In this document: positions 5,944-59,429 of the stretch, in pieces
How the letters are laid out: each line of letters begins with the position of its first letter
Position numbering within the stretch: position 1 is the stretch's first letter
Position numbers and translations under genes: made by a program
The notes under the pieces: generated by a model
What the model saw: the letters and a program-made list of their open reading frames with translations, nothing else
Told to the model about the DNA's origin: nothing
The model's database searches: none
Assembly (NCBI GenBank): GCA_963669175.1
Contig: OY769902.1
Span: forward strand, 3,072,001-3,136,000
Length of the DNA: 64,000 nt
Direction of reading: 5' to 3'
Origin: a bacterium
GTDB lineage: Bacteria > Electryoneota > Electryoneia > Electryoneales > Electryoneaceae

Positions 5944-6126
5944 GCGTCAGCAGGCTTTAGCCGGGGGAACAAGGAAAACAACCGTTCGAGCGCCCTTCAG
6001 GGTGCTTTCCTGATACGTAATGATTCGATGACGTTCAAGCACGCTAAAGCGCGCTCATAGCTTTTGTTATATCCATCCACCCGGCTAAAGCCGGGTGCTA
6101 AGGGGAGCCTGCTGAAGCAGGCTAAA
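5944..6126. repeat. Multi-hairpin REP-like element, left half partly deleted
   Basis: Hairpins GAGCGCCCTTCAGGGTGCTT, AAGCACGCTAAAGCGCGCTC, CACCCGGCTAAAGCCGGGTG and AGCCTGCTGAAGCAGGCT in inverted halves. Confidence 0.7.
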
Positions 6127-6194
6127 TACTTTCGAATCAGCAAAAACTTTCGGGAACCCCTATAATCAACTCCAGCAAATTCAAACGACTGAAC

Positions 6195-7808: not shown

Positions 7809-7880
7809 GAGTTTGTAGGTATGCAAGTTTGAAGGTTACAAAGTAGGAAGGTTATTAAGCTGTAAAGTTATAAAGTTATT
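7809..7880 (+). repeat. Nine degenerate 8-mers, consensus A(A/G)GTTNNN
   Basis: gagtttgt aggtatgc aagtttga aggttaca aagtagga aggttatt aagctgta aagttata aagttatt in strict 8-nt phase. Confidence 0.7.
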
Positions 7881-7886
7881 GGTTTT

Positions 7887-7921
7887 ATCCTTGATATCCT
7901 TTTATCCTATTATCCTGTGAG
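7887..7921 (-). repeat. Orphan right arm of the AGGAT repeat family
   Basis: Reverse complement matches 21164-21198 at 34 of 35 positions. Confidence 0.85.
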
Positions 7922-18899: not shown

Positions 18900-18999
18900 T
18901 TAGGAATTAGGAATTGATGGTGAATTAAGAATTGAAAATTAAGAATTAAGAATTAAGAATTAAGAATTAAGAATTAAGAATTAAGAATTAAGAATTAGC
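18898..18999 (+). repeat. Heptamer tandem array (AATTAAG)n
   Basis: Eight perfect copies at 18937-18992 plus degenerate AATTAGG/AATTGAA units beginning inside the nuoF stop codon. Confidence 0.95.
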
Positions 19000-19020
19000 A
19001 ATCGACACTGAGTTTCAGTT

Positions 19021-21163: not shown

Positions 21164-21644
21164 CTCACAGGATATTAGGATAAAAGGATATCAAGGATGA
21201 AAAACTAATGGAAAAGAAAAGCTTTGTTAATGAAGAACTGACAAAGAAAATTATTGGTATATGTTATAAAGTACAAAATGAGCTTGGTGCAGGATTTTTG
21301 GAAAGTGTGTACCATAATGCTCTTCTAATAGCTTTGCGAGATGAAGGTTTTTCAGTTGAAAGTGAAAAACGATTAAAAGTGCATTTTCATGGTAAAGAAG
21401 TAGGAACGTTTTTCGCTGATATTGTTGTTGAAGGGAAAGTTTTAATTGAGTTGAAAGCAGTTGAAGAATTGAAAAGTGATCATAAAGCCCAAGTAGTTAA
21501 CTATCTGAAAGCGTCATCAATAGAAACAGGTTTACTTGTTAATTTTGGAAAGCAGAGAGTTCAGATTAGCAGGTTGTATAAACCAGAAAAGCAAAGTAGT
21601 TAAGTTTTTATCCTTAACATCTTTGTATCCTAATATCCTGTGAG
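21164..21644 (+). mobile_element. Putative inserted cassette: AGGAT inverted arms (21164-21206, 21603-21644) enclosing a GxxExxY gene
   Basis: First 19 bp of the arms perfectly inverted, the rest nearly so; AT-rich interior; interrupts nuoH-nuoI. Confidence 0.75.
21208..21603 (+). CDS. GxxExxY protein (PD-(D/E)xK nuclease superfamily)
   Basis: GFLESVY, ADIVVEGKVLIELK, AQVVNYL, GLLVNFG; 131 aa; about one-third GC in lines counted. Confidence 0.92.
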   Translation: MEKKSFVNEELTKKIIGICYKVQNELGAGFLESVYHNALLIALRDEGFSVESEKRLKVHFHGKEVGTFFADIVVEGKVLIELKAVEELKSDHKAQVVNYLKASSIETGLLVNFGKQRVQISRLYKPEKQSS

Positions 21645-22233: not shown

Positions 22234-22361
22234 TAACAGGATGCAAGGATAAAAGGATATAAAAGATAAGAATAATTCGTTGCTATTATAAAAGTTAGCA
22301 TGTTTTTACGGAAAAGAAAGAGGTTTTATCCTTATCATCCTATCATCCTAATATCCTGTTA
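22234..22361. repeat. Empty AGGAT-arm cassette between nuoI and nuoJ
   Basis: Left arm 22234-22271 and inverted right arm 22324-22361 around ~52 AT-rich nt. Confidence 0.8.
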
Positions 22362-22406
22362 GAAAACTTGTTGTTGAAACGAAAAACCACATACGTGGGA
22401 TCTGCG

Positions 22407-28461: not shown

Positions 28462-28591
28462 AATGCCAGTCTCTGCTTGCCGTAGATTCTCTGTTTGTTC
28501 CGGTATCGCCATGTGTGTTATTTCTCTGTTTTGCTGACAAGCAGAGGCGGTATTCCTGAAACCGCCCCGGCAGGGGCACCCTGTATTAGCC

Positions 28592-28987
28592 CTGTCTCTT
28601 GCTCACATCTTCGTGTTTCTGCCACCCCAGAGGGGGTGGTATATTTTAGCGTAGGGTTGACGCTGTCTGTTTAGCGTCTACCCTACGAAAAAGATCAAAC
28701 CTTATCTCAACCCTGGAAGGGTTGCATAACGTATAATTTACACCCAATTGGTTTGTATAGAATATAAAATGCGTTATTTCCTGTATTTATTGAACGTACT
28801 AATATGAATCGCGTATTATGCAACCCTTCCAGGGTTGATTATTCGTTAGAATACCTGACATAGTGTACAGGCCAAACAGACGGCCTGTACACTATGCTAA
28901 AATAGGGAATCCCGCCGGGATTCTAAAAATGCTATGTCCACAACTCTTTTACTGATACAGCTTTCAGAAGATGTGGGTAAGAGACAG
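28592..28987. mobile_element. Non-autonomous MITE with IS50/Tn5-like ends
   Basis: Ends CTGTCTCTTGCTCACATCTTC and GAAGATGTGGGTAAGAGACAG; direct repeat TGTATTAGCC at 28582-28591 and 28988-28997. Confidence 0.85.
28621..28923. repeat. Six-hairpin REP-like element inside the MITE
   Basis: Perfect 23-bp IR 28707-28729/28816-28838; 15-bp stem with AAACAGAC loop at 28859-28896. Confidence 0.8.
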
Positions 28988-29461
28988 TGTATTAGCCCCG
29001 GGCAGTCGCCGTCTGTTTGGCGACTACCCGGGGAGATGATTCCCACCATATATTTACTCCGGTAGGAGTAACCTAAGTATTATTAAGGGACTACATCGCG
29101 AATGTTTAGGCAACCCGCTGCCGGGGTTGGCAAGGAGAGCGCATCTTCTCCCACCGTGAGCGCCAAACAGACGGCGCTGGACGGTGGGCTAATTCAGGGA
29201 ACCATTGCCGTGGTTCTTGTGCTGGCCATTGCATCAAGTATCACTTGAGTGAGGGAGCTTGGCCCGACTGCGTGCAGTCGGGTTCCTGAACGGCCAGTAT
29301 ATCCAGTATCCCGACAGCAAGCAGTCGGGCCAAACGATCTCTTCGTGAAATTTGATCCTGTACACCAAAAATAGTCCGAAAATAATGTTGTTCGGCTTTC
29401 GGATTTTGTCTCACATCAGTATCCTTCCATTTGAATCCTCGCTGACATTGTAGTAACATGT

Positions 29462-31264: not shown

Positions 31265-32275
31265 GTGTCGCATACGGTTATTATTCATGAACGAAAAGGC
31301 GGGTACTCAGATCGCTGGATCGAGTATTGCCGTGAGAATGAAATCGCTTACAAGGCAATAAATGCGCTGAAGCCGGGCATCATGCGAGAGCTGCAAGACG
31401 GAACTCATTTTTTGTGGCATTTGAATCACCGCGAAACCCGTGAGCTGCTGGTTGGGCCTTCCATTCTTTCCGCAGCGGAAAGAATGGGGATCAGGACGTT
31501 TCCAGATCCCAATACGCGCCTGCCGTTCGAAGACAAAGTCGCCCAGAAGTACCTGTTCGAAGCGCTGGATCTTCCCCTGGTTCCTACGGAAGTGTTTTTA
31601 AGAAAAGACGATGCGTTGCTCTGGGCGGAACGAGTCTCCTGGCCAAAGGTTTTCAAACTCAGGCGTGGTGCTGGATCTCACAATGTGAAAATGATCCATG
31701 ACCGAACAGAAGCGATCAAACTGATAGAACAGGCGTTCAGTACCGGATTCAATCCGGTTGAGAAACCGCTTGGAGATGCACGGGTTAAAGCGAACAAGTT
31801 CAAAAAGAATCCGGTTGAGTTTGTCAAGAAGGTGCCGGGCGGGTTGAGGAAGATCTACAAGCAACGTCAGCTTGGTGTGGTTGAACGTGGCTACTTCTAC
31901 ATCCAGGAATTCATGCCGGACAATGATCATGATACCCGTGTGACCGTGATCGGGAACAGGGTATTTGCATTTCGCAGGCATGTGCGACCGGGTGATTGGC
32001 GGGCTTCCGGCGGTGGCAAGCTGGACTATGACTTGTCACAACTGGATATGAAATGTGTTGAGATGGCGCGTGATGCTGCCTTGAAATTGAAAATGCAGAG
32101 TGTGGCGTTTGATGTTGTCTATAATGCGGATCGAGAACCTCGGATTGTTGAGATTTCCTGCGTATTTGACGGGCCTGCTATTCGTAATTGTGTCGGTCAT
32201 TGGGATCTGGAACTGAACTGGCATGATGACCAGGTCTGGCCGCAAGATGCAATACTGGCTGATTTGCTTGAGTAG
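31265..32275 (+). CDS. ATP-grasp (RimK-like) ligase
   Basis: EDKVAQKY, P.VFKLRRGAGS.NV, YIQEF.P..D.RV, DWRASGGG. Confidence 0.8.
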   Translation: MSHTVIIHERKGGYSDRWIEYCRENEIAYKAINALKPGIMRELQDGTHFLWHLNHRETRELLVGPSILSAAERMGIRTFPDPNTRLPFEDKVAQKYLFEALDLPLVPTEVFLRKDDALLWAERVSWPKVFKLRRGAGSHNVKMIHDRTEAIKLIEQAFSTGFNPVEKPLGDARVKANKFKKNPVEFVKKVPGGLRKIYKQRQLGVVERGYFYIQEFMPDNDHDTRVTVIGNRVFAFRRHVRPGDWRASGGGKLDYDLSQLDMKCVEMARDAALKLKMQSVAFDVVYNADREPRIVEISCVFDGPAIRNCVGHWDLELNWHDDQVWPQDAILADLLE

Positions 32276-32296
32276 CCCGTCCATGCCTGGACGGGG
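32272..32296 (+). repeat. GTAG-type REP
   Basis: GTAG CCCGTCCA tgcc TGGACGGG; overlaps the upstream stop codon. Confidence 0.7.
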
Positions 32297-32370
32297 ATGC
32301 TGCTATTGTGAATCATACTGTTTGTGAAACAGGTTTGAGGTATTGTCGCTCGAGATCCCCGTTCAAGCCG

Positions 32371-32541
32371 GGGATGACATGTGTGGCCGGGGATGACATG
32401 TTGTAAGGGATGACATGTGTGGCCGGGGATGACATGTTGTAAGAGATGACATGTGTGGCCGGGGATGACATGTTGTAAGAGATGACATGTGTGGCCGGGG
32501 ATGACATGTTGTAAGGGATGACATGTTGTAAGGGATGACAT
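32371..32541 (+). repeat. Higher-order tandem repeat: ten GATGACAT cores at 19/17-nt spacing
   Basis: Cores at 32373, 32392, 32409, 32428, 32445, 32464, 32481, 32500, 32517, 32534. Confidence 0.95.
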
Positions 32542-32543
32542 AT

Positions 32544-32568
32544 GTAGCCTGTCCATGACTGGACGGGG
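32544..32568 (+). repeat. GTAG-type REP
   Basis: GTAG CCTGTCCA tgac TGGACGGG; direct repeat of 32272. Confidence 0.7.
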
Positions 32569-32612
32569 ATTGCTGAAAACATGCTGTAACATCAACGTAA
32601 GAAAAAACATAC

Positions 32613-37226: not shown

Positions 37227-37283
37227 CTGCTGGTTCACAATACGTCTGCGAGAGCAGGTTCACATCTCATGAGTAGCCCGGCT

Positions 37284-37434
37284 GAGTGGTCCGATCCGCA
37301 AGAAATACAGCTTCCACTTTTGTTTCAGCAGAAATACTCTCACGTCATTGCACGTACAGGCCAGTTCGCTTGAGCGCATCGGGATAGAGGTTGTTAGGTC
37401 AGGCAATGTCGCGATATTGATCTTTGTCCCGATG
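37284..37434 (+). repeat. 151-bp direct repeat, copy A (5' part of the element at 37570)
   Basis: Highly similar to 37570-37720. Confidence 0.9.
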
Positions 37435-37569
37435 GGTGGCACGATTTTGCCCCGTGATGAATCCTATGTTGCGCGATACCTGGTAGGGAAAAAGGCTTCC
37501 TCACGCATTGAATCCAGGTGGGCAAAGTCGTGATTGAGACAAGAAAGAATCCTCTATGAGTTGTATGCC

Positions 37570-37811
37570 GGGTGGCCCGATCCGCAAGAAATACAGCTTC
37601 CACTTTTGCTTCAGCAGAAATACTCTCACGTCATTTCACGTACAGGTCAGTTCTCTTGAGCGCATCGGGACAGAGGTTGTTGGGTCAGGCAATGTCGCGA
37701 TATCGATCTCATTCCCGATGCGCTCCTGGTTGCCGCATGGATAAAAGCATCCTCAGCGTATTCCTGCATCATCGATAGTGGATAACTCCTCACTTGCGGA
37801 TCGGGTCACCC
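37570..37811. repeat. 242-bp MITE/REP-like element with 19-bp terminal IR and internal 13-bp stem
   Basis: GGGTGGCCCGATCCGCAAG / CTTGCGGATCGGGTCACCC; GAGCGCATCGGGA / TCCCGATGCGCTC. Confidence 0.75.
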
Positions 37812-45062: not shown

Positions 45063-45137
45063 GGGGCAGTAGCTCAGTTTGGTTAGAGTGCCGGCCTGTC
45101 ACGCCGGAGGTCGCGAGTTCGAGCCTCGTCTGCCCCG
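45063..45137 (+). tRNA. tRNA-Asp (GTC), CCA not encoded
   Basis: Acceptor GGGGCAG/CTGCCCC, anticodon arm CCGGC-CTGTCAC-GCCGG, GTTCGAG T-loop. Confidence 0.95.
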
Positions 45138-45143
45138 CTGTAG

Positions 45144-56095: not shown

Positions 56096-56254
56096 GCAGA
56101 CAGCAAGCAGCCGGGGCAAATGCCCAGCATCAGTAAACACAGATGAGTAAATCCTTCTAGCCCGAATATTTCATGAACGGAACATGGATATTCATCTTAA
56201 CACAGTTAATATCAACACAATACAACTGATTCATACAGCATTTTTCAGGGGACA

Positions 56255-56596
56255 GTTTGCTCCGGTATCCCTTTGCGTGCCTATTCCCTGTTTCGCTGGC
56301 AAAATAGGCTGAGAATCGGCAACCGCCCCGGCAGGGGCAACCTGTATTAGCCCCGGGCAGCCGCCGTCAGTTTGGCGGCTACCCGGGGAGATAATGCGCA
56401 CAATATATTTACTCCGGAAGGAGTAACCTGATAATTATCAAAAGTATACAGTGGTGATATTTAGGTAACCCGCTGCCGGGGTTGGCAAGTAGCGTACATC
56501 CTATTCCCACCGTGAGCGCCAAACAGACGGCGCTGGACGGTGGGCTAATACAGAGAACCACTGCCGTGGTTCTTGTACTGGCCATTCCATCAAATA
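56255..56596. repeat. Six-hairpin REP-like dispersed repeat, copy 2 (intact)
   Basis: Homologous to the outer element at 28493-29240; between convergent genes. Confidence 0.85.
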
Positions 56597-56630
56597 CCAA
56601 ATTTGAAATTGCATTGGTGAAATATTCGGG

Positions 56631-59429
56631 CTAGAAATCAAACCCAATTCCGACTTGCCAGCGTCGTCCAGCCTGCCAGAAACGTGGATCATTATAATAC
56701 CCATCCACATCAAAGTCAGGGCTGCCGTCACCATCGCTATCGTTCGTGGAATAATACACCGGATCAGCATTTTCCTGAAAATACAACTGGTCAATATTGC
56801 GCTGATCGAATAGGTTGAACGCCTGAACATAAGCATATACCGCATTTCTGTTGGCAAATGTGAAGCGTTTCATCAGGCGTGCATCGACAGTCGTTGTGGA
56901 TTCGAGACGATCCGGGGGGCGAACAAGTGTGTTGTTGAAATACGAAGTCGCATATGGTATTCCGCTACCGTAGCGCACAACTGTAGAAAGGCTTAATTCT
57001 TCGATCGCACGGTTGAAACATTTCCATGGCGTCAGGTCAGCCTCGCGTGGGATAGTCAGCAGCAGGGTGCCCGTTAGCGTTGTCGCTTGATCCCAATCTG
57101 CACTGACCTCGCTGAGGTCGTAATGATCTTCCCAGTATTCGCCCCGCAAATACAAATCGTAATCGTAATTCATCTGGACACGCATGGGTGTATAGCGGAT
57201 CTCGCCCTGAACAAAGGAATTGGCATCATAACAGAGAGTGATTTCCATACCACGTATGTCGTATTCCGGCATGTAGAAAGTATATCCGATATAACCAGTC
57301 TGGTAAGAAAATCGCTGTGCCGGATCAACCCATTTCAAGAATCCGGTGATTCCGGTATATCCGAAGGAGGGTATTTGTTGACGAATCTCCAGTACGAGTT
57401 CCGAGGTGCGGTCGGGATCGGTATCATCAATACTGGATGGATAGAAATACCAATTATCCGGGATCTGTGAAATCATGCTGCCAGTTAGTGATACCTGTGT
57501 AACCGTAAACGGTTGCCAGGTTATTGACAGCATCGGGCTGGCCATAAACTGTGATTTGGGATCATCCTGTTCCATAGCGAACTCATAGTCTTTAATCTCA
57601 TCCGGTTCAAACAGGTCCGCACGTACCCCGCCAGTCAATACCAGTTGCCAAATATCAGTTCGCCCTTTAATCCATGCGCCATACCGGGTTGGAGTGAACT
57701 TGGTATGTGTTTGGCCCATCCCGCCGCCCATTCTGGCAATTGTATGATCAATAATCTCGTAGAAGTCAGCATCGAGACCGACTTGAATGGTCGTATTCGG
57801 TTTCATCCTATAATCGAGATGCCCTTTAAGGGAGGTTGTCTCAGTGATCTGCACGCCCCACAGGTTGTAGTCATACACCCAGCCATCTCCGTAGGTAAAG
57901 TCGCCATTATCATTGCGTTCATGGTCGTAATACACATCTTCCCAGGCCATCCATTCGCTTTCCGGTCCATGTTCAGAAGCGTCGATGTACCCGTTGTTAT
58001 TGTTATCTGTGAACAGGTCGGTAGAGGAGCCGTAAACCGCCCAATCCCAGACACCGTTTCCATTACGGTCTTCATAATCCCATGCGCCGTTCCGGTTGAA
58101 ATCAAAATAATAGAACTGCGGATCAGCGGAGCTGGGCCACGCAGCCAGGTATTCTGCATTCTCCGAAAGGAAATCTTCAGGAATATCGCTGATGGCGCTG
58201 TAACGAGGTTCGAGGTCGAAAATGCCGTCCTGGTTACTGTCCTCATTGGTGTCTTCACGGATGTTATATTTCGTTTCCGAGCGTGTCCTTGCTACCTGCA
58301 AATGATAAGACAAGTCAGGGGAGAGGTGGTGATCCAGTTGTGCATTCCAGTACCAGGCGTGAGTTTCCCAGGTCGGCAGATGATCCAGCATACGTTCCAT
58401 TCGGATCAACGAACCATCCCCATAGACATCAACAGGCGCATCATGTTCCCACTGGTTGTCGAAATGAGAAAAATACGAGTTGGAGGAGCCACCGCTGATA
58501 TTCAGTCGCACGTCACGCAAAGGTGTCAGGATCAGTTTTCCGAATGCGCTGGTGTTGGTTGAATCGTCATTGTCGAATCGTCCGCGAGTCAGGTAGTTCT
58601 GCCCGGCTACGTAAAACGTCCCGAATTTCTCCAGCTTTGGGATGGGGCCGCCGAAACTCAGTTCACCATCCTGCAAACGGTCACGTTCATCCAGGATACT
58701 GTTCCCTTCGCCAAGCGTGCTACTGCGGTATTCCACATTTCCATGATATTCGCCTGTGCAGGATTGGGTAATGAGCTGCCTGAATCCACTGGGGACGTAT
58801 GGATATTCAATATCTGGTATTGGTTGGCTTGTTACTTGGGCATACGCGGATTGTGGCAGGTTGATACGATTTCTGCTACTGATCCAGTCGCCCAATGCAA
58901 CACCATCGATGAAGAAACCGGAAGCGTTGATTTTTCCGCCACGGATGTGACCGTATACGGTCCCTGGGGCCAGTGGCAGGATATCTCGATAATCTTCATG
59001 TGGGAGATAACGGATCTGATCATCAAGCCTGATGAACTCACCCTGAAGGGGAGGAGCTGTTGTGAAGACCTGGCTGGAACGTGTCAGGATGATAGTTTCC
59101 TGATCGGAGTCCGCGCTAAGCATGAATTCCAGCGCCTGTGTTTTTCCGGCGAATAGCTGGATGTTGTAATACGTTGTTGTTCCGTAACCGTCAGCCTCAA
59201 TGCTGAGAGTATAAACACCTGGGGAAAGCTGTTGAAACGAAAATGATCCCGCTTCATCAGTCGCCTGAGTGTTGCCAGTATTCAGAAGATTAACTGTCGC
59301 TTGCACAATCGGGTTTTGAGATTGAAGGTCAGTCACAATTCCAGTCAGCTTACCATTAACCGTTGCATATCCGGAAGATGCGATTAGAAGTGTCAACAGT
59401 ATTCCCGACAGCCAGCGCATGCAATTCAT
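56631..59429 (-). CDS. TonB-dependent receptor with N-terminal carboxypeptidase-regulatory-like domain
   Basis: GKLTG.VTD, TDEAG.F, HIRGG, FNLFD, C-terminal GRRWQVGIGFDF. Confidence 0.85.
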   Translation of the reverse strand: MNCMRWLSGILLTLLIASSGYATVNGKLTGIVTDLQSQNPIVQATVNLLNTGNTQATDEAGSFSFQQLSPGVYTLSIEADGYGTTTYYNIQLFAGKTQALEFMLSADSDQETIILTRSSQVFTTAPPLQGEFIRLDDQIRYLPHEDYRDILPLAPGTVYGHIRGGKINASGFFIDGVALGDWISSRNRINLPQSAYAQVTSQPIPDIEYPYVPSGFRQLITQSCTGEYHGNVEYRSSTLGEGNSILDERDRLQDGELSFGGPIPKLEKFGTFYVAGQNYLTRGRFDNDDSTNTSAFGKLILTPLRDVRLNISGGSSNSYFSHFDNQWEHDAPVDVYGDGSLIRMERMLDHLPTWETHAWYWNAQLDHHLSPDLSYHLQVARTRSETKYNIREDTNEDSNQDGIFDLEPRYSAISDIPEDFLSENAEYLAAWPSSADPQFYYFDFNRNGAWDYEDRNGNGVWDWAVYGSSTDLFTDNNNNGYIDASEHGPESEWMAWEDVYYDHERNDNGDFTYGDGWVYDYNLWGVQITETTSLKGHLDYRMKPNTTIQVGLDADFYEIIDHTIARMGGGMGQTHTKFTPTRYGAWIKGRTDIWQLVLTGGVRADLFEPDEIKDYEFAMEQDDPKSQFMASPMLSITWQPFTVTQVSLTGSMISQIPDNWYFYPSSIDDTDPDRTSELVLEIRQQIPSFGYTGITGFLKWVDPAQRFSYQTGYIGYTFYMPEYDIRGMEITLCYDANSFVQGEIRYTPMRVQMNYDYDLYLRGEYWEDHYDLSEVSADWDQATTLTGTLLLTIPREADLTPWKCFNRAIEELSLSTVVRYGSGIPYATSYFNNTLVRPPDRLESTTTVDARLMKRFTFANRNAVYAYVQAFNLFDQRNIDQLYFQENADPVYYSTNDSDGDGSPDFDVDGYYNDPRFWQAGRRWQVGIGFDF

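Follow-up and report, generated by a model that had tools for sequence, protein, structure and literature searches.

The locus studied here is the gap between the end of nuoN (28405) and a gene for an O-antigen-ligase-like protein (29462), within a 64-kb stretch of bacterial DNA that was analyzed as a whole and is referred to as the window. A 396-bp insert (28592-28987) lies in this gap between perfect 10-bp copies of TGTATTAGCC, which form the left (28582-28591) and right (28988-28997) target-site duplications, both on the forward strand. An earlier reading made from the letters alone (the sequence-only reading) had described this insert and its duplication with the same coordinates and letters. 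It had also described inverted ends of 19 bp; inverted ends are present, but the terminal inverted repeat is two bases longer, at 21 bp with 19 of 21 positions matching. The left IS50-type end (28592-28612, forward strand) resembles the inside end of IS50R (L001), with 17 of 19 identical positions. The right IS50-type end (28967-28987, reverse strand) is of the ACCC type and matches the IS50R inside end at 15 of 19 positions and the ends of complete haloarchaeal IS4-family elements at 16-17 of 19. No ORF of at least 80 aa was found in the 396 bp, and the insert has the traits of a MITE in that it is short and noncoding, with terminal inverted repeats and a target duplication.

When the insert and one copy of the duplication were removed, the resulting empty site aligned with 56255-56599 at 285 of 346 nt (82%, E 2e-90), continuously across the junction, in agreement with the claim that removal restores the junction of an intact copy. 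This alignment implies that the outer unit is about 345 bp long. The interrupted outer six-hairpin unit, A1, consists of a left part (28493-28591, forward strand), which includes the first hairpin and the left duplication and aligns to 56255-56352, and a right part (28998-29243, forward strand), which is 85.6% identical over 257 nt to 56343-56599. The second outer unit, A2 (56255-56599, forward strand), is uninterrupted, and the pre-insertion junction is visible in it. The proposed nesting is real, but at this length A1 (28493-29243 minus the insert) exceeds its six-hairpin core. Immediately to the right of A1 is an inverted pair of short palindromes (29259-29333), a single relative of which is found to the left of A2 (56099-56120). 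These palindromes are similar to the repeat that is the target in Legionella loci L019, L010 and L053.

A2 had been called intact. Although it is uninterrupted over 56255-56599, it lies between the arms of a further inverted repeat (56161-56630), and CTAG is duplicated on both sides. This 470-bp element has 13-bp perfect inverted ends, or a 19-nt perfect inverted repeat when CTAG is counted (56157-56634 overall). Its left end matches the end that precedes an IS1380 transposase fragment (PF13701) in another locus (L115) at 16 of 17 bases, and CTAG precedes both of these ends. IS1380 elements generate target duplications of 4-5 bp. As judged from its sequence features, the element that encloses A2 is probably an IS1380-type MITE, an assignment based on one informative match of the three examined. 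An ORF that ends at 56631 has a stop codon sharing bases with the right CTAG.

IS50-type ends and their target duplications

A 19-mer pattern with 16 fixed bases matched the window without mismatches at exactly the two ends of the insert. One further match, with three mismatches, was found inside a gene; shuffled sequences gave a mean of 0.49 matches at up to three mismatches. With a weight matrix derived from 35 other ends, the left and right ends scored 28.6 and 27.0, respectively, compared with 9.6 for the next site in the window and 16.9 for the best of 20 shuffles. No further IS50-type end was found in the 64-kb window. Both ends also fit the consensus CW------Y---CA-A--W- at all specified positions, as this consensus is given in the IS50-subgroup passages of PMC2266710. 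Comparison of the insert with plasmids returned the end of the real IS50R as the sole match (E 5), and no homolog of the interior was found in the loci listed from the scan described below, in plasmids or in phages. With its fit to the subgroup consensus and the resemblance of its left end to the IS50R inside end, the insert bears out the suggestion that it is a natural element with Tn5-like ends.

Species-representative genomes were scanned with a 20-base pattern derived from the ends of the window element, with the mosaic end excluded. At least 111 loci were obtained, compared with an estimated chance expectation of about 26 matches in the whole collection. Because the pattern was built from the window element's ends, end identity among these matches holds by construction. 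The first 20 bases of the left end were also found in L031 and L088, and those of the right end in L014, L034, L038, L056 and L091, among the matches listed. None of the loci listed (at least 111) matched the window region, and the host genome was absent among the matches listed. IS50-like transposase sequence was present in 28 of the 111 loci listed, several of which overlap. Six IS50-like proteins were aligned; five contained DDE and YREK, and the sixth was broken. Ends of this type thus exist in other genomes, and some of them flank these DDE/YREK transposases. The sequence-only reading had inferred a Tn5-like transposase elsewhere in the genome of the insert; within the window, no transposase was found among the scanned ORFs (overlapping sets of 46 and 34, taken from 174 ORFs). 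Four loci of an Alteromonadaceae MAG (L017, L043, L077 and L079) contain a 2070-bp autonomous element, which is above the published length range of the subgroup, with about 470 bp after the transposase gene. Every copy seen of this element has an 8-bp duplication in the same GTAG-type repeat.

Pairing of ends among the matches listed gave 36 elements including the window's, of which 8 were longer than 1200 bp and 28 were shorter than 600 bp. Many elements with such ends were gene-less and 107-478 bp long, some of them in cultured isolates, and near-identical short elements were found at different sites of one genome (L014/L034 and L008/L049). Among the matches listed, the short elements came from Legionella, Dyella, Dokdonella, Oceanisphaera, Enterovibrio, Buttiauxella and Ktedonobacter, as well as from a haloarchaeon, Ca. 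Electryonea and a gammaproteobacterium. We conclude that gene-less natural elements with IS50-type ends are common.

The resemblance of the ends to the mosaic end raised the question of a library or assembly artifact from Tn5 (Nextera) adapters. However, the two ends of the insert are not identical, and they depart from the mosaic end quoted in the sequence-only reading at 3 and 2 of 19 positions. They are 21 bp long and enclose genomic repeat DNA with a 10-bp duplication. Moreover, cultured isolates, Ktedonobacter sp. SOSP1-85 among them, have elements of the same architecture with identical end strings. Since many short elements with such ends are distributed across genomes, we regard an adapter artifact as very unlikely. 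The wide distribution of these elements is also a warning against reading every near-mosaic-end sequence in an assembly as adapter contamination.

The 10-bp duplication of the window element is outside the 8-9 bp listed for the IS50 subgroup in the corresponding passages of PMC2266710. We determined duplication lengths for 22 of the 36 elements, having dropped those with partial flanks, those with more than two duplication mismatches and the nested repeats of L101. Among these 22 elements, the window's included, a perfect duplication of 8 bp was present in 3, one of 9 bp in 7 and one of 10 bp in 5, and the remaining 7 had imperfect duplications. The other short elements with a perfect 10-bp duplication, among the matches listed, were L014, L019, L038 and L049. 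In addition, three of the five complete haloarchaeal ACCC-end elements (L116, L125 and L127) had a perfect 10-bp duplication. The worry that 10 bp does not agree with the 9 bp of Tn5 is settled by these natural precedents, and the published 8-9-bp range is too narrow. The haloarchaeal elements contain the Tn5-type DNA-binding domain (PF14706), and in a transposase tree their proteins formed a clade of their own, apart from the core IS50 clade. As 10-bp duplications were found both with ACCC ends and with the GAT ends that are usual in the core clade (L019 and L049), they do not name the partner clade of the window element.

Hairpin cassettes as cargo and as target

The cargo of the insert is a six-hairpin cassette, B (28622-28923), in which two inverted three-hairpin arms surround an AT-rich spacer (29% GC). 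The hairpins of arm 1 are at 28622-28639, 28650-28687 and 28708-28724, and those of arm 2 are at 28821-28837, 28859-28896 and 28907-28923. The insert contains 6 GC-rich hairpins, compared with a mean of 0.07 in shuffles, and its fold has a z score of -12.35, with none of 100 shuffles equally stable. A second six-hairpin unit inside the insert had been proposed, and these values agree with it. The arms of cassette B align with the arms of both outer units and have the common core GTCTGTTT(G/A)GC, indicating that cargo and target belong to one repeat family. GTAG starts the long left hairpin of the cargo (28651) and is absent from the equivalent hairpins of the outer units.

The common core and architecture of the inner and outer cassettes would also be expected if the insert had arisen by recombination or Y1-mediated insertion between related cassettes, in which case the end match and the duplication would be coincidental. 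We consider this barely credible because the ends score 27-29, compared with the shuffle maximum, exactly at both borders of the duplication, and because the inner and outer cassettes are just 75% identical, over 56 nt only.

The 64 kb contains three related units, each of them an inverted pair of arms, which is a trait of REPs and REPINs (repeated intergenic palindromes). The window and all loci listed were scanned for motifs, and no Y1/RAYT gene was found beside any six-hairpin unit; the 64-kb window gave no Y1 motif. One Y1 gene was present among the loci listed (L003), and its printed flanks were without a six-hairpin unit; a Y1 query from this locus led to a different subfamily. Mobilization of the six-hairpin unit by Y1 is no more than a lead. 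Because no Y1/RAYT gene was found next to the six-hairpin units, 'REP-like' is a description only. The proposed REP cassette inside the insert is supported to the extent that the cargo, a hairpin cassette, is related to the repeat in which the insert lies.

A profile of the three six-hairpin units had no match outside the window among the fetched loci. Plasmid and phage searches with the outer unit, the cargo, the cassette of L002, the 5945-6130 cassette and a Legionella MITE gave short chance matches or nothing, and no Rfam match was near the gathering score. Promoter and terminator matches were consensus matches only. We also examined the left of the outer units for a decayed IS50 end and rejected it on a strongly negative matrix score. 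A second family of multi-hairpin cassettes is represented at about 5950-6126 of the window, where it is without IS50 ends. This cassette matched the cargo of an IS50-ended element in Ca. Electryonea (L002, 3632-4020) at 74% over 92 nt (E 2e-10); the window and L002 have protein-level matches of 35-56%. Since A1 has no recognizable ends of its own, A2 lies within probable IS1380-type ends, and the second family occurs both with and without IS50 ends, the cassettes are separable from the ends that bracket them.

We also examined the cargo of 24 short elements among the matches listed, including the window element and with four nested duplicates dropped. The interiors of 13 of the 24 folded at z<-3, and 11 were without a strong fold. 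The cargo was host-typical repeat DNA, such as the CGTC-tagged dimers carried in Dyella and Dokdonella; dimers of the CGTC type form the cargo of L008, L049 and L050. The target resembled the element's own cargo at p<0.05 for 6 of 17 elements among the matches listed, three of them from a single genome with copies nested in one another (L101 and L106), and the window element gave p=0.096. In L101 and L106 (JAWLGK010000005.1 and JAWLGK010000027.1), IS50-ended elements lie inside the hairpin carried by another copy. L101 contains four tandem end-plus-target units, which could be an assembly artifact.

The sequence-only reading had proposed that the element may target REP cassettes. We compared the symmetry of target sites with that of random sites of the same locus, using one element per genome. 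Among the elements listed, 12 of 25 targets had palindromes centered on the duplication at p<=0.05 (binomial 7e-10), and 10 of 25 empty sites had unusually strong folding. The 13 of 25 targets that were non-centered, again among the elements listed, included those of IS50R itself and of the window element. By eye, 15 of 15 ends in a Burkholderiaceae MAG were in a CGTC-type repeat, 14 of them in one register, and 14 of 14 ends in an Alteromonadaceae MAG were in a GTAG-type repeat (both among the matches listed); the Neiella copies were mostly in terminator-like hairpins, also by eye. The flanks were C-rich at -10 to -14 (44-63% C in 112 unique flanks, among the matches listed). These data establish a target bias statistically at the level of the group. 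The ACCC-end elements of haloarchaea and Ktedonobacter (L116, L125-L128, L014 and L038) sit in hairpins that look like IS200/IS605 ends, and a TnpB gene is annotated beside L126.

Targeting at the window's own site is less direct, and there the proposal is carried by the group of genomes rather than by the site itself. The window site is off the axis of symmetry: of 12 pairs, 4 are symmetric (p=0.34). Its folding is matched by 6.7% of 1178 intergenic 40-mers. The two outer-type units constitute 1.1% of the window and 7.9% of its intergenic DNA, a slight underestimate, since 980 bp of coding DNA went into the intergenic total. Given this share, the off-axis position and the abundance of other repeats in the window, it is possible, although we think it rather doubtful, that the insert is a real MITE that landed by chance and survived in a harmless intergenic repeat; survival in such repeats could mimic targeting. 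This explanation concerns the targeting step only. However, in several genomes the ends occupy a single fixed register of one repeat family, a regularity that selection for harmless sites leaves unexplained, and both half-sites of the window have C at -13 and -15, like the profile of the group. The window's site was probably targeted as well, with chance as a real alternative at this locus.

Proposed movement of the insert and relation to known systems

We consider it likely that the insert is a natural non-autonomous IS50/Tn5-type transposon (MITE) that moves by cut-and-paste in trans and is guided to GC-rich symmetric sites, with the cassette as a passenger. Both ends would be paired by an IS50-like DDE transposase whose gene lies, or once lay, elsewhere; this enzyme would excise the 396 bp and, by analogy with Tn5, reinsert them with a 10-nt staggered cut. 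The transposases of the group would favor GC-rich symmetric sites that are C-rich 10-15 bases outside each end, and this preference would result in landing in REPs, terminators and IS200/IS605-type end hairpins. The landing point in the window would be the foot of a long hairpin in a six-hairpin repeat. The cassette itself would not be part of the IS but would belong to a separate repeat family of the host, acquired as cargo and traveling inside whatever ends bracket it.

The insert is not an autonomous IS50 member, given that it has no gene and a 10-bp duplication. Since the 64 kb contains one copy and no transposase gene, movement of the 396 bp as one unit is our inference. Alternatively, a full-length IS50-like element may have inserted and lost its gene, with the cassette coming later, such that the insert is a dead remnant and the 396 bp never moved together. 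The single copy in the window, the lack of an interior homolog in the loci listed, plasmids and phages, and the short distances between the cassette and the two ends (merely about 30 and 64 bp) are consistent with such a remnant. However, no transposase similarity was found among the ORFs of the insert region, and short elements of the same type recur elsewhere with different flanks. In addition, because the duplication is perfect and the ends are nearly so, there would have been little time for the gene to be lost and the cassette to arrive. On balance a remnant is unlikely, and we retain the interpretation of the insert as a MITE.

Each ingredient of this interpretation has precedent, in ISRm22, QMITE2 and the REP/RAYT systems. 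The IS50 subgroup of the IS4 family (IS50R/Tn5, ISEc13 and ISVa18) comprises elements of 1350-1550 bp according to the passages of PMC2266710 on this subgroup, which also give the 8-9-bp duplications mentioned above. As described there, the insert is like the subgroup in its end consensus, in a duplication of about one helical turn, and in that transposases with the same ends contain DDE and YREK. It differs in having no transposase gene, a length of 396 rather than 1350-1550 bp, a 10-bp duplication and hairpin cargo. The same passages report neither an IS50 MITE nor a palindrome preference for the subgroup; one passage on extra DNA in PMC2266710 is relevant to the MIC231 cassettes considered below.

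QMITE2 of Coxiella burnetii, as described in part of PMC5896051, has 23-29-bp terminal repeats, 7-11-bp duplications, a REP inside and a length of 150-190 bp. Like the insert, it is a MITE with a REP inside, and its REP-only forms occur without ends. With respect to length and target, QMITE2 differs from the insert in being shorter and in being itself the target of IS1111 rather than REP-targeting (PMC5896051). The insertion of ISRm22, an IS4-family element of subgroup IS4Sa, at the axis of a REP palindrome is a likeness with respect to the target, but ISRm22 is autonomous, belongs to another subgroup and has 6-bp duplications, and the passages of PMC1525189 that treat it describe no REP cargo.

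With respect to the cassettes, clustered GC-rich hairpins in inverted pairs that are intergenic and repeated are likewise found in REPs, REPINs and BIMEs (described in passages of PMC6006769 and PMC3733652). The cassette is unlike a REPIN in having three hairpins per arm and only one long hairpin with a GTAG foot. It is also unlike the REP plus TnpA-Y1 (RAYT) systems in those passages in that no Y1 gene was found beside any six-hairpin copy in the window or the loci listed. Its status as cargo within DDE ends is outside the REPIN definition given in the same passages (PMC6006769 and PMC3733652).

Searches of the open-access literature returned no description of natural MITEs with Tn5 ends, of IS50-ended MITEs with REP cargo or of a hairpin-directed Tn5 relative, and no paper in open-access text matched the exact end strings. 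The MIC231 cassettes of IS231, which have non-autonomous IS4-family ends with foreign DNA, resemble the insert in this respect. Unlike the insert, they have IS231-subgroup ends (CAT) and gene cargo and are found in the Bacillus cereus group. In passages of two further papers, a 2024 MITE review mentions IS50 in the legend of a Tn5 figure (PMC10969869), and PMC3184786 contains no passage on IS50.

A broader reading, which we offer tentatively and regard as possible rather than probable, is that IS50-like transposases beyond Tn5 select palindrome or hairpin axes and that their MITEs are widespread, unnamed vehicles of REP-type repeats in bacteria and archaea. If so, these vehicles would include carriers of the CGTC repeats, which according to passages of PMC3733652 have no dedicated transposase and may be moved by others. 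In addition, elements that carry their own target repeat would generate new sites for insertion and become nested time and again; L101 and L106 fit this picture, as does the window in a looser sense. By itself the locus amounts to a single nested mobile element, shows no sign of a host function and is of modest interest; the interest comes from the wider pattern. No bacterial DDE transposase has been studied as closely as Tn5. Should the pattern hold, it would offer enzymes on which a 10-bp stagger and palindrome-directed insertion can be tested, as well as a concrete carrier for REP families whose spread still calls for an explanation.

Inspection of the rest of the window revealed several other features. 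A complete rnf cluster directly precedes the nuo operon, the two together spanning 8004-28405. Within this operon, a GxxExxY gene (21164-21644) is bracketed by a 45-nt inverted repeat with relatives at other gene boundaries (7872-7921 and 22313-22362), a tandem 7-nt repeat occupies the nuoF/nuoG gap (18908-19009), and the nuoG ORF is just 317 aa long, covering 264 of 606 model positions. In the space between one pair of genes (32272-32570), units of 36 and 17 nt form a tandem array enclosed by palindromic repeats, and a 154-nt intergenic direct repeat (37281-37434 and 37567-37720) has 92% identity. A tRNA-Asp gene was found at 45063-45138.
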